This document shows, piece by piece, positions 1,641-11,348 of a stretch of 20,139 nucleotides of DNA. The number at the start of each line of letters is the position of its first letter. Positions within the stretch are counted from its first letter, which is position 1. The stretch covers positions 1 to 20,139 of the IMG/VR virus record IMGVR_UViG_2728369187_000007. The stretch is one strand, 5' to 3'. A model generated the notes under the pieces. It saw only the letters and a list, made by a program, of their open reading frames with translations. It ran no database searches and was not told the origin of the DNA. The position numbers were made by a program, and so were the translations under genes. Origin of the DNA: a virus (lineage: Duplodnaviria > Heunggongvirae > Uroviricota > Caudoviricetes).

Positions 1641-4112
1641 TTAAGAATCAGCCTGACTCGGGATCAGTTTTTGCCAGATAACTGAAACGTATTTTGCTTG
1701 GTAACGGGCGTCATCAAGTGCATTATGGCGCTCACCTTCGAATGGAATAGCCGTTCTGGCATCGAAATCTATGGCTTTCCCCAGCTCAACGATTGTGCGT
1801 ACATCGCGATCGTTGTAGTAACGCCACGGGCAGGGGATCCCCTGCCGTTCGTATGAACGGCGCAAAATCGTGTTGTCGAAGTTGGCTCCATTTCCCCAAA
1901 CCTGAACAAAAAATTCACCGGAGTTTTCGTCGATAAATTCCCGCAATTGTAACAGTGCATCATCTAACGGGATTTCATCGGTCATAATGGCAGATTGTGC
2001 TTCGCGTGATTGCTTAAGCCACCATTTAATGGTGTCCCGATCAATGACTCCGCCAGCAGTTTCCAGATCGATAGTCTTACTAAATTCCGGTCCTATATCT
2101 CCGGTTTGCGGATCGAAAAATATTGCACCTATTGAGATGATCGGTGCATCAGGATTTTTTCCCATGGTTTCAAGGTCGATCATTAGATGGTCACACGTCC
2201 TGCTGGTGGATGTGATTTCGTGATGACCGTTCACCTTAATTGAGTGATCTGCCGTCTCGCCAGTTTCATTATCGCTATTGTGATGCTGATTGCCGCCAGT
2301 GTTCTCCTTGTGTGGATGTTCAGCGCCTTCCATTTCCTCCGGATCATCTTCCTGAACTTCAACCTGATACTCTTCATCGAATGTTTCTTGGTATGTTGCG
2401 TCGCCCATCACCGCGCCACAATCAGGGCAGTTGCCGCCGCCGGTCTGACCGCAGGCGGTGCAGACTTTTTCCACTTCCTGTTGCGCCACTGGTTCAGGCT
2501 GTTTCGTTTCTGGCTCGTTTTGTAACGCATTTGGGCTGTTTTGTTCCGCTTTTTGGTAGTTCCGTTCCGATTCATGCTGGTTCTGGTTCACAGAATCGCG
2601 GGTCTGGATCCCCTTAACCCATTTCGGATCATTCGGGTCACTAATCCCTTCAACAAATTCACCATGTGATGCAGCAAGCAACTTATCGGCGTCAGGCTGG
2701 CTGATATTGGCTGCCTGCATAATTTTGTTTACTTCGTCAGCGGTAACTTTTATCGGCTCTGGTTGTTCTGAATCTTCAGCGGTATCTACATTTTGCGGTA
2801 AGCCCGTGTATGTGCCATTTTTTCGGGCAAAATATTCTTCTTTTGTGATTTCAGTGGCGCCAGCAGCCAGTGCCTTATCCAGACCAGAAAGTTTGTTTGC
2901 GCGACCGTATTTTTCTCCGTCCTTATCTGCGAAGAGGAAATAGAACGGCCCCTCACGCTCTACAGATGGTTCAGCTTCCGGCGCGGTTTCATTTTTTGGG
3001 ATATCAGATACCTCAGTTTCCACTGCATCAGTTTGTGTTTCTGATGACTGGAGAACATCAACAGTGCCCAGGTCTGTTTCTTCATTCTCAAACACGCCCT
3101 TTGTCGTCAGGTATTCGCAGATATATTTGTTCAGTGCTACGGGATCTTTGTGAATGTCGATCGGACGCTCACGGACAAGGCCAAAAATAGTTTGGCGGTC
3201 GTAGCGAAGGGCATCAGGCTGTTTGCGCATTGATGCCGAGATACGCTTCCAGTCTTCGCGGTCGTTGTCGATAACTTCTTTTTTTGCCCAGCGATGGATG
3301 CTGCCGTCAATGTTTCCGGCATCCACATCACCAGGCCAGAGAGCGTAGGCCAGTTCGTCATCCAGTGTTTTCCATGTCTGCTTGTATTCGCGATGAATGG
3401 CAGCAATGACCGGGCTGATTTTTCCTGTTGAATTTTCAGTGTACTGTTGATTGGCTCTGGCGCGGGCGAGATCAACAACAGACGTGTATTTTCCGGTTTC
3501 CTTGCGTTCACCTTCGCGACGTTTTTTCCAGATGCGCATCTCTGCCTGAATTTCGGGCCATTTAGCACCAGGAATACATTTATGCTTAACCCACCCAATG
3601 GCGTGCAACTTAAGCTCCGGATACATGGCGTTAACTTCTGGCATTTTCATCAACGCTTCAACGATATGTCCGTCGAATGTTGCCATGTCTTCCTGCAACA
3701 ATTCCTGTGCGCTAATAACCATATCAACGGTGATGTTTTCACATGTGTCGAACTTAACCATGACAGCGTTCTGTACTTCAGGGGCCAGCTTGTCAAAAGT
3801 GACGTTCATCGGATCGGATTCAGTCTCAACCGGGACAAAAGAAGCAGACTCCTCATCCCAGCGGTTTTCCTGCATATATTCAGCATCCCATGAATCGAGG
3901 GCAGGGCGGGGTATGCCAGGTTTATCCTCGCAGACAATAAATTTATAAGCGCAGTCCTGAGCAGCCGGATAATGTTCCAGGAACTGCCAGTGAAATTTTG
4001 CTCGAGCACGGCGTTCGTCGCCAGCTTCAATGGCTGTGGCTACAGCCACAGCGCCTTCTTCCCTTGTTGCCAGTTCGTCAGGAATAGCGGCGCAAATAAA
4101 GACTTTACTCAT
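1641..4112 (-). CDS. RecE-like exonuclease (exodeoxyribonuclease VIII-like) with C-terminal DEDD-type 3'-5' exonuclease domain
   Basis: 823-aa ORF. C-terminal LMIDLETMG matches the Exo I motif (D-x-E-T-x-G) of DnaQ-like exonucleases. Acidic low-complexity linker in the middle. Sits where lambda has exo. Confidence 0.7.
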   Translation of the reverse strand: MSKVFICAAIPDELATREEGAVAVATAIEAGDERRARAKFHWQFLEHYPAAQDCAYKFIVCEDKPGIPRPALDSWDAEYMQENRWDEESASFVPVETESDPMNVTFDKLAPEVQNAVMVKFDTCENITVDMVISAQELLQEDMATFDGHIVEALMKMPEVNAMYPELKLHAIGWVKHKCIPGAKWPEIQAEMRIWKKRREGERKETGKYTSVVDLARARANQQYTENSTGKISPVIAAIHREYKQTWKTLDDELAYALWPGDVDAGNIDGSIHRWAKKEVIDNDREDWKRISASMRKQPDALRYDRQTIFGLVRERPIDIHKDPVALNKYICEYLTTKGVFENEETDLGTVDVLQSSETQTDAVETEVSDIPKNETAPEAEPSVEREGPFYFLFADKDGEKYGRANKLSGLDKALAAGATEITKEEYFARKNGTYTGLPQNVDTAEDSEQPEPIKVTADEVNKIMQAANISQPDADKLLAASHGEFVEGISDPNDPKWVKGIQTRDSVNQNQHESERNYQKAEQNSPNALQNEPETKQPEPVAQQEVEKVCTACGQTGGGNCPDCGAVMGDATYQETFDEEYQVEVQEDDPEEMEGAEHPHKENTGGNQHHNSDNETGETADHSIKVNGHHEITSTSRTCDHLMIDLETMGKNPDAPIISIGAIFFDPQTGDIGPEFSKTIDLETAGGVIDRDTIKWWLKQSREAQSAIMTDEIPLDDALLQLREFIDENSGEFFVQVWGNGANFDNTILRRSYERQGIPCPWRYYNDRDVRTIVELGKAIDFDARTAIPFEGERHNALDDARYQAKYVSVIWQKLIPSQADS

Positions 4113-5860: not shown

Positions 5861-5915
5861 AATTTAGAATAACCTAACATAAGAGGCAAGTGTTTTTTGT
5901 TAGATTAGTCTAACA
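5861..5915 (-). promoter_or_regulatory. Left operator/promoter region (OL/pL-like): two operator palindromes flanking a leftward promoter
   Basis: Perfect 18-bp palindrome TGTTAGA-TTAG-TCTAACA at 5898-5915 and a weaker site TTTAGA-ATAA-CCTAACA at 5863-5879. Minus-strand promoter candidate: -35 TTGCCT (5884-5889), 17-bp spacer, -10 TAAATT (5861-5866). Confidence 0.55.
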
Positions 5916-5951
5916 AAAAGAGTGGGCGCAACTAATCACTTGAAAAGAATG

Positions 5952-6359
5952 TTATTTTATTGATTTATTTTTACGCGCTTTAAGCATTTCTTCGAAGAGT
6001 TTGTTGAAGTTTTCTACTCTTGCGCGCATTTCAGACAGCAAGGCTTCCTGCTCGGAAGATGGAAGAGCATCGAATAATTCGATCAATTCTTTGTGGTTGG
6101 GAGTTAGCTCTGTTTCCACATGAAGTTCTTGTGCCGGCACTGGTGCCTTGTCTTCGTCACCAAACATTAGCCATGTAGGTGAGCACTTCAGAGCATCCGC
6201 TAAAGCAAACAATCGTTTTCCGACTGGCTGGGTTTCGTCTCTTTCCCATTGTGAAATTGTGACGTGAGCAACCCCAGCGAGGCGCGCAGCTTCTCGTTGT
6301 GTTAAGCGTAATTCTTTTCGTCGCGCCAGAACTCGCTGGCCTAGGGTTCTTGTATCCAT
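5952..6359 (-). CDS. dicA: DicA-like HTH (XRE-family) prophage repressor
   Basis: N-terminal HTH (LTQREAARLAGVAHVTISQWE). C-terminal half (CSPTWLMFGDEDK...EMRARVENFNKLFEEMLKAR) closely matches DicA as recalled. Divergent from the cro-like gene. Confidence 0.8.
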   Translation of the reverse strand: MDTRTLGQRVLARRKELRLTQREAARLAGVAHVTISQWERDETQPVGKRLFALADALKCSPTWLMFGDEDKAPVPAQELHVETELTPNHKELIELFDALPSSEQEALLSEMRARVENFNKLFEEMLKARKNKSIK

Positions 6360-6360
6360 A

Positions 6361-6426
6361 GTTAGGTAATTCTAATTTTTCTTGACTTAGGTATCCCGCG
6401 CACAATAATGTTAGAAAAGTCTAACA
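6361..6426 (+). promoter_or_regulatory. Right operator/promoter region (OR/pR-like) between repressor and cro-like gene
   Basis: Perfect 18-bp palindrome TGTTAGA-AAAG-TCTAACA at 6409-6426 and a weaker site GTTAGG-TAAT-TCTAAT at 6361-6376. Rightward promoter: -35 TTGACT (6382-6387), 16-bp spacer, -10 AATAAT (6404-6409). Confidence 0.6.
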
Positions 6427-6439
6427 ATAGGAGGCTTTG

Positions 6440-6667
6440 ATGCTTAAAGCTGACGCAATTACTTTTTTTGGCAGCAAAACAAAGCTTGCCAATGCCGCAG
6501 GAGTGAGACTGGCAAGTGTTGCTGCTTGGGGGATACTGGTTCCTGAAGGTCGCGCGATGCGTCTACAGGAGGCATCTGGCGGGGAGCTTCAGTATGATCC
6601 CAAAGTTTATGACGAATATCGTAAGACGAAGCGGGCGGGGCGGTTGAACAATGAAAATCACTCCTGA
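6440..6667 (+). CDS. dicC: DicC-like Cro-type regulator
   Basis: 75-aa protein from the ATG at 6440, with AGGAGG 5 nt upstream (the ORF-track start at 6437 is TTG). Divergent from the repressor; sequence resembles DicC/YdaS-type Cro proteins. Confidence 0.7.
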   Translation: MLKADAITFFGSKTKLANAAGVRLASVAAWGILVPEGRAMRLQEASGGELQYDPKVYDEYRKTKRAGRLNNENHS

Positions 6668-7172
6668 ACAGGCTCGTGAGGCTCTGGATGCCTGGATATG
6701 TCGACCAGGAATGACACAGGAGCAGGCGACGATATTAATCACTGAAGCATTCTGGGCTTTGAAAGAGCGCCCGAACATCGATGTTCAGCGTGTCACAGAT
6801 GAAGGTGGCGCGGTTGATCAGCGAGCGCTTGGCGTTAATCGAGTGAAGATATTCGAACGCTGGAAGGCTATCGACACTAGGGATAAGCGTGAAAAGTTCA
6901 CGGCGCTAGTGCCTGCAATTATGGAGGCTATCCGGATTAATGATTTCAGGTTGTATCGTGAAATTAGTGACGGAAAAAGCATCACGTACATGATCGCCGG
7001 GTTAAACAAAGAATATGGCGATGTGGTGGAGTCCGGACTGCTTTTTGCTGATCCTGCCGTAGTGGATCGTGAAACTGACGAACTTATAGAAAAAGCAATT
7101 GCTTTCAAACTTGCGTATCGACTGCAATACCAACAAAAAGCTGGATGGAATTATGAGCCTTCTTTTTGCTGA
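6651..7172 (+). CDS. YdaT/CII-like regulatory protein (putative)
   Basis: 173-aa ORF directly after the cro-like gene, overlapping its end; the position corresponds to cII/YdaT in lambdoid prophages. Assignment is by synteny only. Confidence 0.4.
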   Translation: MKITPEQAREALDAWICRPGMTQEQATILITEAFWALKERPNIDVQRVTDEGGAVDQRALGVNRVKIFERWKAIDTRDKREKFTALVPAIMEAIRINDFRLYREISDGKSITYMIAGLNKEYGDVVESGLLFADPAVVDRETDELIEKAIAFKLAYRLQYQQKAGWNYEPSFC

Positions 7173-8118
7173 ACGCCCACTGGTTATAAACACACAGCTT
7201 GCGATGAAGATTGGCTTAAATGAAGCCATTGTGTTGCAGCAGTTGCATTACTGGTTGAGAGATACCAATTCCGGCATGGAATGTGATGGTGTTCGCTGGA
7301 TTTACAACACAACGGAACAATGGCTGGAACAGTTCCCATTCTGGTCAGAGTCAACGTTAAAGCGCGCGTTTGCAAGTCTGAAAACGCTGGGGCTTTTGCG
7401 TTGTGAAAAGCTCAATAAATCAAAGCGCGATATGACCAATTTCTACACGATCAACTATGGGAGCGAGCTTTTAGATGGTGGCAAATTGAACGAATCCATC
7501 GGTTCAAAATGCGCCGCTCCATCAGGTCAAAATGACACGATGGAAGAGGTCAAAATGAAACGCTCCATTGGTTCAAAACGACCCAATGTCATCGGGTCAA
7601 AATGGCCTGATGATCTTACAGAGAATACAACAGAGATTACTACAGAGAATAAAAACACTTTTCGTCCGGAAGCTTCGCAACCGGACCCGCAGACCGCTGA
7701 ACAGGATTTTTTAACCCGGAACCCCGACGCGGTTGTGTTTAGTGCGAAAAAACGCCAGTGGGGTAGCAGGGAGGATTTGGCGTGTGCGCAGTGGATTTGG
7801 GGGCGGATCGTGAACCTTTACGAACAGGCTGCCAGCGACGATGGAGAGATCATGCGACCAAAAGAGCCTAACTGGACAGCCTGGGCCAATGACGTGCGCA
7901 CAATGCGGATGCTGGATGGCAGAAGCCACAGACAAATTTGCGAAATGTTTGGTCGGGTACAGCGAGATCCATTCTGGGTAAAAAACATCATGAGCCCGTC
8001 AAAACTCCGCGAAAAATGGGACGAACTGGTCATCCGCTTGGGACGTTCACCTGTACAGCGTTGTGTGAATCATATTTCTGAACCGGATACAGAAATTCCG
8101 CCTGGTTTCAGGGGATAA
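7153..8118 (+). CDS. Replication initiation protein (lambda O-like replisome organizer)
   Basis: N-terminal region typical of phage replisome-organizer proteins; an iteron array lies inside the gene, as in lambda O. Start set at the ATG at 7153; the ORF-track start at 7099 is TTG. Confidence 0.7.
   Translation: MSLLFAERPLVINTQLAMKIGLNEAIVLQQLHYWLRDTNSGMECDGVRWIYNTTEQWLEQFPFWSESTLKRAFASLKTLGLLRCEKLNKSKRDMTNFYTINYGSELLDGGKLNESIGSKCAAPSGQNDTMEEVKMKRSIGSKRPNVIGSKWPDDLTENTTEITTENKNTFRPEASQPDPQTAEQDFLTRNPDAVVFSAKKRQWGSREDLACAQWIWGRIVNLYEQAASDDGEIMRPKEPNWTAWANDVRTMRMLDGRSHRQICEMFGRVQRDPFWVKNIMSPSKLREKWDELVIRLGRSPVQRCVNHISEPDTEIPPGFRG
7492..7655 (+). repeat. Origin-of-replication iterons plus AT-rich tandem repeats inside the O-like gene
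   Basis: Five direct repeats of about 11 bp (consensus GGT(T)CAAAATG) starting at 7501, 7525, 7548, 7570 and 7595, spaced 22-25 bp. Followed by three 12-bp tandem repeats (ACAGAGAATACA / ACAGAGATTACT / ACAGAGAATAAA) at 7616-7651. Confidence 0.65.
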
Positions 8119-8158
8119 GTGTTGATTTCAGGTCATGAGGTAATTTTAAGGAGGACTT

Positions 8159-8581
8159 GTGGCAAAAGTTTTTACACAGGAAGAGCGGGAAAAAATTAAA
8201 GAGCAGGTGGTCGAACTTGTGCGCCAGAGCGGTCGCGAGACATTACGACAGTTGGAAGCTAAAACAGGTGCGACAAGATATCTGATGAGCATTCTTGCCA
8301 GAGAGCTGGTTGCCAGTGGTTATGTATACAACTCCGGCTACGGGTTATTCCCGTCTGAACAGGCACGAAAGGACTGGCAAAATGCCCGCAAAAAACTCTC
8401 TAGGGCGAAGGTGAAGAAACCCGCTGTGGTTGATCCGGACCTTATCTGGTCACTACCTGATGGAGAAATACGTCGCTACGACAGTCGTCTAAACATAATC
8501 TGTCGCGAGTGCCGGAAGAGCGAAGTTATGCAGCGCATATTGTCGTTTTATCAGGGAAATGTTCGGTATCTATTTAAGTGA
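8159..8581 (+). CDS. Hypothetical protein (140 aa), replication-module associated
   Basis: GTG start with a strong RBS (AAGGAGGA, 8147-8154). Normal GC. No motif recognised; it does not look like a lambda P or DnaC-type helicase loader. Confidence 0.6.
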   Translation: MAKVFTQEEREKIKEQVVELVRQSGRETLRQLEAKTGATRYLMSILARELVASGYVYNSGYGLFPSEQARKDWQNARKKLSRAKVKKPAVVDPDLIWSLPDGEIRRYDSRLNIICRECRKSEVMQRILSFYQGNVRYLFK

Positions 8582-8896
8582 CGAGATTAAAGTGCATTAG
8601 TTAAGATGTAAATTGACATTTTCATGGCATAGGGTAGAGGTAGCGTGGTTGTCTGCTTTGTGCCATGAACTGATGTCGCTTGTGTGCGTGGCAATTAGTG
8701 TATAACGGATATCATCAGACTCCAGCAGTAGCATTGCTTGAGCATACTAACATATGAAATCTTTAGTTAACGTAAGATAAATTAGATTTAGTTTTTTTGA
8801 GTATGAGCTCATAAATAATCAAAAAAACTTGATACGCCATATGACTTTGATTTATTTTGGAAAAACATAAAGGTAATGTAATGTAAAGAGGAAAAT

Positions 8897-10384
8897 GTGG
8901 ACATTAGAGACTGGCTACCAGAATTTCAAGTTTCAGCAGAAACAGATCGGGACTTACAGACCTATTTTTTTAAGCTACCGGCGATAAAGGATATTATTGA
9001 AAGTAGGGCTTGGTTGGTTCTTGGAAGAAAAGGTACTGGTAAAACAGCCATTTATGAACACCTTAGAAGAGGAAAACCAGCCAATCTCAACGGGTTTTAC
9101 TCAGTATGTCTAAATTTTAGTGACTATCCATGGCCAGCCCATCAACTTTACAAGGATGCAATGGCTGGAGAACTTTCCGCTTATCAAAAAAGTTGGATGT
9201 ATCTTTTTTATATTAAGGCATTATCTAAACTTATTGAAATAAAAAATGATGCTGGAGAGACTTTAAACAAAGATCTAACGTGGGCACATAATTATATCAA
9301 AACTATCTTTGGTAGTCCCGACCCAACTCTTAGGGAGGTTTTGTTTTCAAAAATAACCAGATTAAAAACCATAAAAGGGCCCAGTGCTGGTCTTAATGAA
9401 GTATCATTGGACGCAGGTGAAATTTCGTTAGAGGAAGTTGCTGAGAATGCTCAGCTAAAGCAAAAGCTAAGAGCTAATGCTTTCACATTGCTTACGTATT
9501 TTGAAAAAATTTTTAAAGATAACATTGGTAATGAAAAAATAATTATCGCCCTTGACCAATTAGACGAAAACTGGCTAGAGGGGCAAATTGAAGAATATAG
9601 TAAGGTTTTAATAAATCTGCTAAATGTCTGTAGAAACATAGCATCTGATGAACGCCTCAATGATAAATTAAAAGTCATTCCCTTCCTACGAACGGATATT
9701 TATCATTCTTTGAAATTCAATGATAAAAACAAATTATTGCAAGATAGTGCTATCATAATCTCATGGAATGAAAATAATCTAAACGATATGTATTATGAGA
9801 GGATAAAGAAATACAAACCTAATGATCTCATATTAGATGACGAAAAGGACAGATCTGGGAAAGTATTTGAGGTTTCATTCGTTAGGCAGGGGACTCCTCC
9901 ATTTAAATATATATGTCGCCGTTCTTTCTTTAGGCCTAGGGATATTATTGTCTACTTCAACAAAATTAGGGCATGTCATAAAAATAATGTCTCAGGTCTT
10001 TACACTTCCAATGAGCTTTATGAAGCTGACCGTGAAGCATCTATAAGTGTGTACAATGAGGTGATTGATGAATGGTCCAACCAATTCCCTGAAATTGAGA
10101 ACTTACTAACTGTTCTTCAAACTATCCAAGTAGAAACATTCGATTTTAATGATTTCTCCGAGAAGTGCCGTAATGAATTTGCAGGTATTTCTGATGGGGT
10201 GATACGTCAATATATCAACTTCCTGTTTGATAACTCACTTATCGGACAAAAAAAACAAGGTAGATGGGAATACGTAAGTAGTTTGCCTAACTTAAAAATT
10301 AATCTACAAAATGAGTTTAGGACACATCATGCTTTAAAATACAGGTTGCATTTAATAGAAAGCAGACCGAGCCAAAATATTTAG
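8897..10384 (+). CDS. P-loop NTPase of unknown family (495 aa) on an AT-rich island; candidate accessory/defence gene
   Basis: GTG start with a GAGG RBS 5 nt upstream; in-frame stop 18 nt upstream. Walker A GRKGTGKT (aa 43-50); candidate Walker B IIIALDQLDE (about aa 215-224). Markedly AT-rich relative to flanks, preceded by about 315 bp of AT-rich non-coding DNA. Confidence 0.85.
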   Translation: MDIRDWLPEFQVSAETDRDLQTYFFKLPAIKDIIESRAWLVLGRKGTGKTAIYEHLRRGKPANLNGFYSVCLNFSDYPWPAHQLYKDAMAGELSAYQKSWMYLFYIKALSKLIEIKNDAGETLNKDLTWAHNYIKTIFGSPDPTLREVLFSKITRLKTIKGPSAGLNEVSLDAGEISLEEVAENAQLKQKLRANAFTLLTYFEKIFKDNIGNEKIIIALDQLDENWLEGQIEEYSKVLINLLNVCRNIASDERLNDKLKVIPFLRTDIYHSLKFNDKNKLLQDSAIIISWNENNLNDMYYERIKKYKPNDLILDDEKDRSGKVFEVSFVRQGTPPFKYICRRSFFRPRDIIVYFNKIRACHKNNVSGLYTSNELYEADREASISVYNEVIDEWSNQFPEIENLLTVLQTIQVETFDFNDFSEKCRNEFAGISDGVIRQYINFLFDNSLIGQKKQGRWEYVSSLPNLKINLQNEFRTHHALKYRLHLIESRPSQNI

Positions 10385-10656
10385 CTTACATCCATCTCCA
10401 TTAAGAAATCTTGCTATTGTTCTTATGGATCGTCTTTCTGACTGATTTCATATTGGCGAGGTAAAGGTAGTTAAGTAGAATGGCTGCGGGTGCTTGAGGC
10501 TATCTGCCTCGGGCATGAACACCAAAGGCAGATAGAGAAAAGCCCCAGTTAACATTACGCGTCCTGCAAGACGCTTAACATTAATCTGAGGCTCAATCTA
10601 TGAACGGCAAATCTAGGTTAGCCTCTTACGTGCCGAAAGGCAAGGAGAAGCAGGCT

Positions 10657-10812
10657 ATGAAGCAGCAAAAGGCGATGTTAATCGCCCTGATCGTCATCTG
10701 TTTAACCGTCATAGTGACGGCACTGGTAACGAGGAAAGACCTCTGCGAGGTACGAATCCGAACCGGCCAGACGGAGGTCGCTGTCTTCACAGCTTACGAA
10801 CCTGAGGAGTAA
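10657..10812 (+). CDS. hokD: Hok/Gef-family membrane toxin (HokD/RelF-like)
   Basis: 51-aa product MKQQKAMLIALIVICLTVIVTALVTRKDLCEVRIRTGQTEVAVFTAYEPEE with the single TM helix and conserved Cys of Hok toxins. RBS AAGGAGAAG upstream of the ATG at 10657. Confidence 0.85.
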   Translation: MKQQKAMLIALIVICLTVIVTALVTRKDLCEVRIRTGQTEVAVFTAYEPEE

Positions 10813-10883
10813 GAGACCTGGCGGGGGAGAAATCCCTCGCCACCTCTGATGTGTCTGGCATCCTCAACGCACCCGCACTTAAC

Positions 10884-10900
10884 CCGCTTCGGCGTTTTTT
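10884..10900 (+). terminator. Weak intrinsic terminator downstream of hok
   Basis: Short GC hairpin (CGC-TTCG-GCG) followed by T6; a degenerate copy of the stronger terminator at 11547-11572. Confidence 0.35.
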
Positions 10901-10955
10901 CCGTTGATTAACTCTAGTTATTAGAGAACCGAACTTTTATTGATGGGGCAGGGAG

Positions 10956-11348
10956 ATGAAGAAACTTGTTTTAGTCGCAGGTGTAATGATTGCAACAGTA
11001 ATGTTGGGAGGGTGTGCAGCAAAGGTCGATCCAGCGTTGAAAGCAGAAGCAATGAAGCCACTAACATGTAATGATGAAAAGCAATGTGACTTTTATTGGA
11101 AACGAGCGCAATTCTGGTTGGCTAATAATTCCTCATGGAAAATTCAAACGGCGACAGACACGCTAATTTCCACTTATAATCCCTCTCCAAATAGTCCATT
11201 CCTCGCTTATCAAGTGAGTAAAATGCCAAATGAAGATGGATCCTCAAGAATTTTCATCAAGCCTTTTTGCGATAATATGTTTGGCTGTCAACCAAACCCC
11301 TATCAGGCAGTTGTTTCCTTTAAAAACTTCGTTAAAACAGGGCAGTAG
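10956..11348 (+). CDS. Lipoprotein of unknown function (moron)
   Basis: Signal peptide with lipobox (VMLGGC, Cys20) plus four further Cys. GGGAGA RBS. Lower GC than the backbone. Bracketed by terminators upstream and downstream. Confidence 0.7.
   Translation: MKKLVLVAGVMIATVMLGGCAAKVDPALKAEAMKPLTCNDEKQCDFYWKRAQFWLANNSSWKIQTATDTLISTYNPSPNSPFLAYQVSKMPNEDGSSRIFIKPFCDNMFGCQPNPYQAVVSFKNFVKTGQ

Follow-up and report, generated by a model that had tools for sequence, protein, structure and literature searches.

The DNA considered here, a 20,139-nucleotide stretch from a virus of the class Caudoviricetes (positions 1 to 20,139 of IMG/VR record IMGVR_UViG_2728369187_000007; hereafter the window), is an E. 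coli prophage of the lambdoid, Qin/Rac-like kind, the replication module of which encodes an O-like initiator and neither a helicase nor a helicase loader. The initiator terminates in a short peptide resembling the end of E. coli DnaT. The reading that is somewhat favoured is of an O-only module, the tail of which most likely docks the host DnaB–DnaC complex, or DnaC, at the origin. The point of interest is this DnaT-like tail, one gene upstream of the 140-residue open reading frame (ORF) that was the subject of the initial annotation. That annotation, having noted the lack of a recognisable helicase or loader after the O-like gene, had considered that the 140-residue protein is a novel adaptor, that the prophage depends on host DnaC, or that a downstream NTPase acts in replication.

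The window ORFs were called mechanically and all sizeable ones were scanned against Pfam, PHROG and NCBIfam. The families matched were integrase, excisionase, exonuclease, DicB, repressor, Cro, CII/YdaT-like, O-like, DUF977, ATPase, DUF968, RusA, Q and terminase, with no helicase or loader family among the sizeable ORFs. Six-frame tblastn searches of the window with E. coli DnaB and DnaC, Rac YdaV, lambda P and P22 gp12 gave nothing below E = 0.2. Nor is there a helicase or loader among the 76 features annotated in PhiR42_1, a 48.7 kb relative with an O protein of 98% identity (the record is deposited in prophage orientation and is not proof of a viable phage). The reported absence of such a gene after the O-like gene is thus borne out, both in the window and in a full-length relative, and no helicase gene lies elsewhere in either. 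An O homologue with no helicase or loader in module or genome is what defines an O-only lambdoid module (PMC12315714), and the window module is an instance of this known but mechanistically unexplained class. O-only modules account for 34 of 314 Enterobacterales lambdoid phages, including LLS, and their replication is described as "not yet understood" (Genome Res 2025, PMC12315714); the main text of that paper makes no mention of DnaT, DnaB, PriA or 'primosom'.

The initiator (7153..8118, +; 321 residues; PHROG 391, replication initiation O-like, 3e-93; RefSeq phage replication protein O) comprises an N-terminal DNA-binding domain, a linker encoded by iterons, a lambda-O-type C-terminal domain and the DnaT-like tail. 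It has no Walker A motif. The N-terminal region matches PHROGs labelled O-like, DnaD-like or replisome organiser, and has no Pfam match to Phage_rep_O (PF04492) at E ≤ 0.01. By sequence comparison, the C-terminal domain (7705..8052, +) is a homologue of the C-terminal domain with which lambda O binds P: an alignment of 148 residues with lambda O 135-270 has 34% identity (E = 3e-29). In an AlphaFold2 model of residues 185-321 this region is a helical bundle (pLDDT 83-92), and the last ~25 residues are unstructured (pLDDT ~50); the predicted disorder is as expected for a short docking motif.

The tail itself, QRCVNHISEPDTEIPPGFRG (8056..8115, +), is the proposed docking peptide. It is identical to E. 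coli DnaT residues 160-179 at 14 of 20 positions (pairwise E = 3e-7), and the extreme C terminus of the protein, …SEPDTEIPPGFRG-COOH, carries the conserved DnaT tail pattern …SEPDxxIPPGFRG. The resemblance is confined to this segment: BLASTP against DnaT aligns the last 20 residues only, and the NCBIfam DnaT model (NF002770) scores 16.2 bits, against a cut-off of 201, over model positions 160-179 only. The same residues match DnaT chains in PDB entries 2RU8, 6AEP and 9ZBT. The tail is absent both from lambda O, which ends …TDWIYGVDL and pairs with P, and from P22 gp18, which pairs with a DnaB-like helicase.

The spread of the tail was examined by scanning IMG/VR for IPPGFRG followed by a stop codon, which gave at least 120 loci and at least 119 tail-bearing ORFs, with 113 informative loci among the matches listed; the locus counts that follow, unless another search is named, are among those listed matches. 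The tail-bearing ORFs represent at least eight initiator scaffolds, among them a Rac YdaU type, a 358-residue family and a 271-residue type with a complete DnaT C-terminal domain; between scaffolds the N-terminal domains are unrelated, and the C-terminal domains are of three or more kinds. Two gene orders predominate. In architecture A (55 of 113 loci), the initiator is followed after a 7-nt gap by a DnaC-like gene, then by YdaW-like and DUF977 genes, the DnaC-like protein being of 248 residues and 48-50% identical to host DnaC. In architecture B (48 of 113), as in the window, the initiator is followed after a spacer of ~40 nt by DUF977. A lambda-P-like or DnaB-like gene follows the tail-bearing initiator at none of the 113 loci. 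The tail sequence is identical in members of both architectures (26 A and 31 B loci), and initiators of the window's own type also occur in both (19 in A, 21 in B). The phage records HannyBb and Tritos have the O-to-DUF977 junction of architecture B, HannyBb with the same pair of 321- and 140-residue proteins, the latter annotated as "Ren-like exclusion protein", whereas the Stx phage 75/02 is of architecture A. A separate search, using an alignment of the window and lambda C-terminal domains, returned 80 loci all with an O C-terminal domain at least 96% identical to that of the window, a set that provides no control of diversity and is usable for counts of architecture and cargo; the junction is present in 67 of these. 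The loader-less layout is therefore recurrent among relatives of the module. All 49 tail-bearing phage records have hosts in the Enterobacterales; domestication of dnaC from phage took place in this order (PMC5109545). Searches of the searchable literature for the tail motif strings, DUF977, YdaU/YdaV and PhiR42_1 gave nothing relevant.

The tail, or variants of it, occurs on other loader-less initiators. The LLS O protein ends …KFGPVDTKIPEGFRG (…VDTKIPEGFRG), and scanning for KIPEGFRG immediately before a stop codon gave 67 further loci at which the next gene encodes a Dam-type methyltransferase, with no DnaC-, P- or DnaB-like gene downstream in any of them. The LLS-type initiator genes overlap the gene for the Dam-type N6-adenine methyltransferase by 4 nt (L209-L275; L128:35064-35951), and the methyltransferase often has a long extension fused to its C terminus (416-444 versus ~292 residues). 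SPN1S has an initiator with a DnaT C-terminal domain and no loader. Initiators of ~271 residues (SPN1S L280:2748-3563; L053, L062, L069, L077, L100 and L114) have a C-terminal domain that is DnaT-like and complete, together with the tail, behind an N-terminal domain that is unrelated, and none has a loader gene nearby; such a protein amounts to the C-terminal half of DnaT joined to a domain for origin binding.

Comparison of tail class with the neighbouring gene points to a role of the tail in helicase recruitment. The SfII initiator has a different N-terminal domain, a C-terminal domain 45% identical to that of the window, a terminus reading …DYSQIPAGFRG and no loader downstream; among its 120 closest database relatives the C-terminal domain is common and the extreme C terminus variable. 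The tails comprise a GFR type (IP[APTE]GFRG, LPENSGFR[ST], TPEGFRGY and similar), a lambda-like type (…DFDNTDWIYGIE…, as in P0162, P0181, P0186 and P0210; …TDWIYGIE…), a type reading …HWNSxEGWxxVL (P0185, P0220, P0223, P0228 and P0236) and a type ending …LDWDGTAWADKLYDEGILR. P0208 was grouped with the initiators bearing alternative, non-GFR tails. No description of the tryptophan-rich …EGWxxVL tail was found in the literature. Where the next gene was looked up, it was of the lambda-P family for all five of the non-GFR tails checked (four by Pfam PF06992, the fifth by 51% identity to lambda P), whereas for the five GFR-type tails checked it encoded a methyltransferase, a ParB-like protein, DUF1627 or an unknown small protein, and never a loader. 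Overall, P adjoins none of ~180 GFR-tailed initiators but all six of the others (the five plus lambda; p ~2e-11, a value that is overstated as the loci are related). The pattern suggests, at the level of sequence, that the extreme C terminus of O-type initiators specifies the loader used; the tails look like exchangeable peptides that specify a partner.

E. coli loads DnaB with DnaC, and lambda O recruits P–DnaB via its C-terminal part. Since the partner gene of the DnaT-like tail is DnaC-like or absent, and never P, the tail appears to go with loaders of the DnaC type, whether of phage or host. In the mechanism proposed, the O-like protein would bind the five iterons within its own gene, and host DnaB and host DnaC would supply the helicase and loader that the prophage does not encode. 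The flexible tail of ~20 residues, a copy of that of DnaT, would hold the place of the P-binding tail in lambda O, and would capture the DnaB–DnaC complex, or DnaC itself, at the opened origin beside A-rich DNA; in sister phages with a DnaC paralogue after the initiator, the same tail would dock the paralogue. For DnaT, recruitment of DnaB/DnaC "remains unknown" (PMC13377028), and direct contact between DnaC and DnaT has not been demonstrated, according to a 2024 study (PMC11087952). Of the possibilities in the initial annotation, dependence on host DnaC is thus the one that gains support, albeit indirectly, via the tail.

The host chromosome has a similar gene order. The dnaT gene lies directly upstream of dnaC, and in Rac the tail-bearing ydaU lies directly upstream of the DnaC-like ydaV; YdaU is 40% identical to DnaT residues 111-179, and YdaV 50% identical to DnaC. 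The dnaT-dnaC pair (L004:3239-4518) mirrors both Rac ydaU-ydaV (L005:4120-5730) and a further locus (L279:2472-4307). Enterobacterial dnaC is a domesticated phage gene (PMC5109545). These sequence relationships suggest that dnaT and dnaC may have been domesticated together from a phage module; dnaT is not mentioned in the paper on dnaC domestication (PMC5109545).

Several points weigh against the docking of DnaC or DnaB–DnaC by the tail. The binding is inferred from sequence. Removal of DnaT residues 154-179 raises the apparent dissociation constant for single-stranded DNA (ssDNA) by ~2-3-fold and lowers cooperativity (PMC4132743), so that the tail may serve DNA binding or oligomerisation instead. 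The downstream loaders were recognised, over 2.5-5 kb, from similarity to seed sequences of DnaC, YdaV, lambda P or DnaB, with Pfam added in ten look-ups, and a novel type of loader could escape such a search. The comparative counts are drawn from redundant and related E. coli-type prophages, and are not phylogenetically independent.

A rather unlikely alternative is that the tail recruits PriA, or the whole PriA–PriB–DnaT primosome, with the host restart pathway loading DnaB. There may be a loose resemblance between the tail and the acidic-plus-IPF tip of SSB, a PriA-binding element. PriA-dependent origins are known, e.g. in phiX174 and pBR322 (PMC4129139), and the DnaT C-terminal domain docks PriA by a hydrophobic interface (PMC13377028); the tail has hydrophobic residues (I, P, P and F). 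However, in the 2026 preprimosome structures the PriA-contacting C-terminal domain of DnaT was modelled from PDB 4OU7, i.e. DnaT 84-153 (PMC13377028), a tail-free unit, so that the tail apparently lies outside the modelled contact. Moreover, the gene that accompanies the tail-bearing one, in the host operon as at 55 of the 113 loci, is DnaC-like rather than priA, and recruitment of PriA leaves the mutual exclusion of tail and P unexplained.

It is improbable that the tail acts, instead of in protein docking, by promoting self-oligomerisation of the initiator or cooperative binding of ssDNA at the opened origin, an effect that it has to a modest degree in DnaT. A crystal-structure paper on the DnaT C-terminal domain, of which 6AEP and 6AEQ are apparently the entries, reportedly describes a new oligomerisation mechanism, as its title has it. 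DnaT 84-153 binds dT30 ~2.7 times more weakly than does DnaT 84-179, with a lower Hill coefficient (PMC4132743). Against this, the tail is also borne by C-terminal domains unrelated in sequence to the DnaT three-helix bundle, including those of the lambda-O type and of the 358-residue family, which makes a conserved partner surface on the protein's own fold unlikely; the strict exclusion with P, furthermore, points to helicase recruitment.

The 140-residue ORF (8159..8581, +), which has a GTG start with AAGGAGG 6 nt upstream, begins 40 nt after the O-like stop (8118), and encodes a DUF977 / Ren-like winged-helix protein (PF06163), annotated identically in RefSeq relatives. As first described, it has no Walker A or B motif. 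Residues 1-135 of 140 match Pfam DUF977 with 100.7 bits (cut-off 22.1), and the protein matches PHROG 142 ("Ren-like exclusion protein") at 7.6e-45, as does lambda Ren at 1.6e-41; the two have a C-terminal helix in common (NIICRECRKSEVMQRILSFY / NLVFKECRQSAAMKRVLAVY). The lambda order is O, P, ren and that of the window O-like, DUF977. As lambda ren lies directly after P, the 140-residue ORF holds the position of ren, and the empty slot is that of P. A homologue search with the 140-residue protein returned only relatives at least 86% identical, and a divergent DUF977 query was used for the alignment. The resulting AlphaFold2 model (65 family members; mean pLDDT 77, above 90 for residues 10-70) has a winged helix at residues 7-65, after which come one long helix, a basic linker that is disordered and, at the C terminus, small helices. 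There is no similarity in fold to lambda P, DnaC, DciA or G39P, and homology to a loader family, which the initial annotation had regarded as decisive, is not found.

That this protein is a novel helicase adaptor replacing P is very improbable. Its gene is in the place of P, 40 nt after the initiator and with a strong Shine-Dalgarno sequence. It belongs, however, to the same PHROG as lambda Ren, which follows P, and its winged-helix fold is unlike those of the known loaders and adaptors compared. DUF977 is retained beside a DnaC-like loader in the 55 architecture A modules, two genes further downstream, whereas LLS, SfII, SPN1S and prophages of Klebsiella or Pantoea do not have it in their loader-less modules; it would thus be neither a substitute for a loader nor needed where the loader is lacking. 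The role of adaptor proposed for it therefore does not stand. The sequence evidence is rather that it is a Ren-like winged-helix protein, predicted to bind DNA, that travels with these modules and is not a loader.

It is likewise scarcely probable that the module is a decayed remnant, from which the loader was deleted, so that autonomous replication of the prophage was lost. Many E. coli prophages are defective, and architecture A looks like B with two genes added. However, the O-to-DUF977 junction does not vary, and the ORFs and iterons are intact, at 48 loci in the tail census and 67 in the alignment search, and the junction is present in the deposited phages HannyBb and Tritos. Loader-less modules of other types belong to LLS, a phage propagated experimentally, and to SfII and SPN1S, both of them sequenced phages, and a simple deletion does not account for the difference between the A and B junction sequences.

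The AT-rich island with an NTPase gene described in the initial annotation does come next after the 140-residue ORF (~8500-10500; GC 0.32-0.37), and encodes a 495-residue Sll1717-family P-loop ATPase (8897..10384, +; NCBIfam NF047389, 250.4 bits, cut-off 75). Although it is the sole NTPase near the replication genes, there is next to no prospect that it acts as helicase or loader for the module. Comparison with DnaB and DnaC shows no similarity; the ATPase occurs at none of 103 loci (0/48 architecture B, 0/55 architecture A), in two of 57 near-identical architecture B loci (C-terminal domain at least 96% identical, with enough flank), where many alternative genes fill the slot, and is absent from HannyBb, Tritos and PhiR42_1. 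Its GC content marks the gene as foreign. The region 5900-11500 matches many E. coli chromosomes at 99.5% identity; of 5426 E. coli genomes, only 37 have this 5.6-kb stretch in its entirety. The element is located between rspB and ydfJ in strain 504838. A part for the downstream NTPase in replication is hence not upheld, there being no conserved linkage with the initiator: the ATPase is variable cargo and not part of the replication module. It gives a weak match (4e-5) to the PADLOC candidate PDC-M28C. In loci L129-L208 the slot after DUF977 is a hotspot of variable cargo; the next gene differs widely among 67 near-identical modules, encoding for example a 118-residue S-adenosylmethionine (SAM) methyltransferase or proteins of 446, 299, 228 and 101 residues.

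The putative origin (7481..7612; no strand assigned), identified by a repeat search and from sequence, consists of five iterons with a period of 23-24 bp and the core GGTCAAAATG. As in lambda, the iterons lie inside the O-like gene between its two domains, the encoded linker containing the peptide repeats SIGSK / VIGSK. Immediately to their right is an A-rich stretch (7617..7660; no strand assigned) with direct repeats TACAGAGAATA(C/A)AA, which is a candidate unwinding element. By analogy with the AT-rich region of the lambda origin, which it matches in position, this stretch may be where the DNA unwinds and the helicase is loaded. A plasmid-like, DnaA-assisted route finds no support, a scan for DnaA boxes (TTWTNCACA) near the origin having given a single, chance-level match.

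The start of the O-like gene differs between the mechanical ORF (TTG at 7099, 339 residues) and RefSeq (ATG at 7153, 321 residues). With either start it overlaps the end of the preceding gene, which encodes a CII-like / YdaT-family protein (6651..7172, +; PHROG 163, CII-like activator, 2e-40; Pfam YdaT_toxin, 1.2e-5), and this suggests translational coupling. The early right operon begins with a gene for a Cro/DicC-like regulator (6437..6667, +; Pfam P22_Cro, 1.2e-12), and the rightward early operon is controlled by a CI-like HTH repressor (5952..6359, -; Pfam HTH_3, 1.5e-14; RefSeq helix-turn-helix protein). After the 140-residue ORF, the order is the AT-rich ATPase island, hokD, DUF968, RusA, Q, lysis genes and terminase. 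The Hok/Mok-type toxin ORF (10600-10812, +; hokD in relatives) lies directly after the island, and in HannyBb and Tritos a hok-type toxin gene is likewise a few genes downstream of DUF977. A scan of 5900-11000 for promoters and terminators gave matches at background level only. In the position of RecE, an 823-residue 'exonuclease' (1641-4112, -) has a C-terminal Rv2179c-like / RNase T-type 3'-5' exonuclease domain (Pfam PF16473, 2.5e-67), where a domain of the RecE type was expected.

It is tentatively proposed, as a possibility that falls somewhat short of probable, that the …IPxGFRG tail of DnaT and of many enterobacterial phage initiators is a DnaB–DnaC docking peptide. If so, it would account both for helicase loading by O-only modules and for the handing of DnaB–DnaC by DnaT to restarted forks, and the dnaT-dnaC operon would be a domesticated phage module of 'initiator C-terminus plus loader'. 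The tails of O-type initiators would then be swappable loader labels, GFR for loaders of the DnaC type and …TDWIYG… or …HWNSxEGWxxVL for those of the P type. The tail would also constitute a small, transferable helicase-loading module and a marker of prophages dependent on host DnaC. A single 20-residue peptide makes testable both helicase loading in about one-ninth of enterobacterial lambdoid phages (34/314) and the recruitment of DnaB–DnaC by DnaT. Were the tail to bind something else, the 140-residue gene and the ATPase would still not be replication factors.

Among known systems, the window module is like the O-only module of LLS in having a single O-type initiator after cII, with no P, DnaC-like or DnaB-like gene, and the LLS tail is a variant of that of the window. 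The DNA-binding domain at the N terminus of the window initiator is a different one, and the next gene, Ren-like in the window, encodes a Dam-type methyltransferase in LLS. With the lambda O-P module it has in common the iterons and adjacent A-rich stretch inside the initiator gene, a C-terminal domain at 34% identity and a ren homologue after the module; the differences are that it lacks P, has a GFR tail rather than …TDWIYGVDL, and has an N terminus without Pfam Phage_rep_O. In the iteron plasmids, e.g. pSC101 with RepA and R6K with pi, the initiator recruits host DnaB with DnaC, and DnaA boxes and host DnaA are used. The window is similar in its combination of initiator and iterons with a host helicase and loader, but differs as to DnaA boxes, for which the single match is at chance level.

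The Rac ydaU-ydaV(-ydaW) module and that of the Shigella Stx phage 75/02 ('primosomal protein I', then DnaC) have the same tail (YdaU …VSLPDSAIPPGFRG), a downstream DUF977 gene and a lambdoid early-operon context. They differ from the window in having their own DnaC paralogue 7 nt after the initiator and a YdaW-like gene, the window having neither. In two papers on the Eru classification of Stx-phage replication regions, term searches gave no DnaC, DnaT or loader. With regard to the host, the O-like protein has neither the N-terminal domain nor the acidic PriB-binding linker of E. coli DnaT, and is predicted to bind an origin rather than a complex of PriA, PriB and a fork. Yet their last 20 residues are 70% identical, and in the succession of a tail-bearing protein and then DnaC, the dnaT-dnaC operon mirrors the phage modules.

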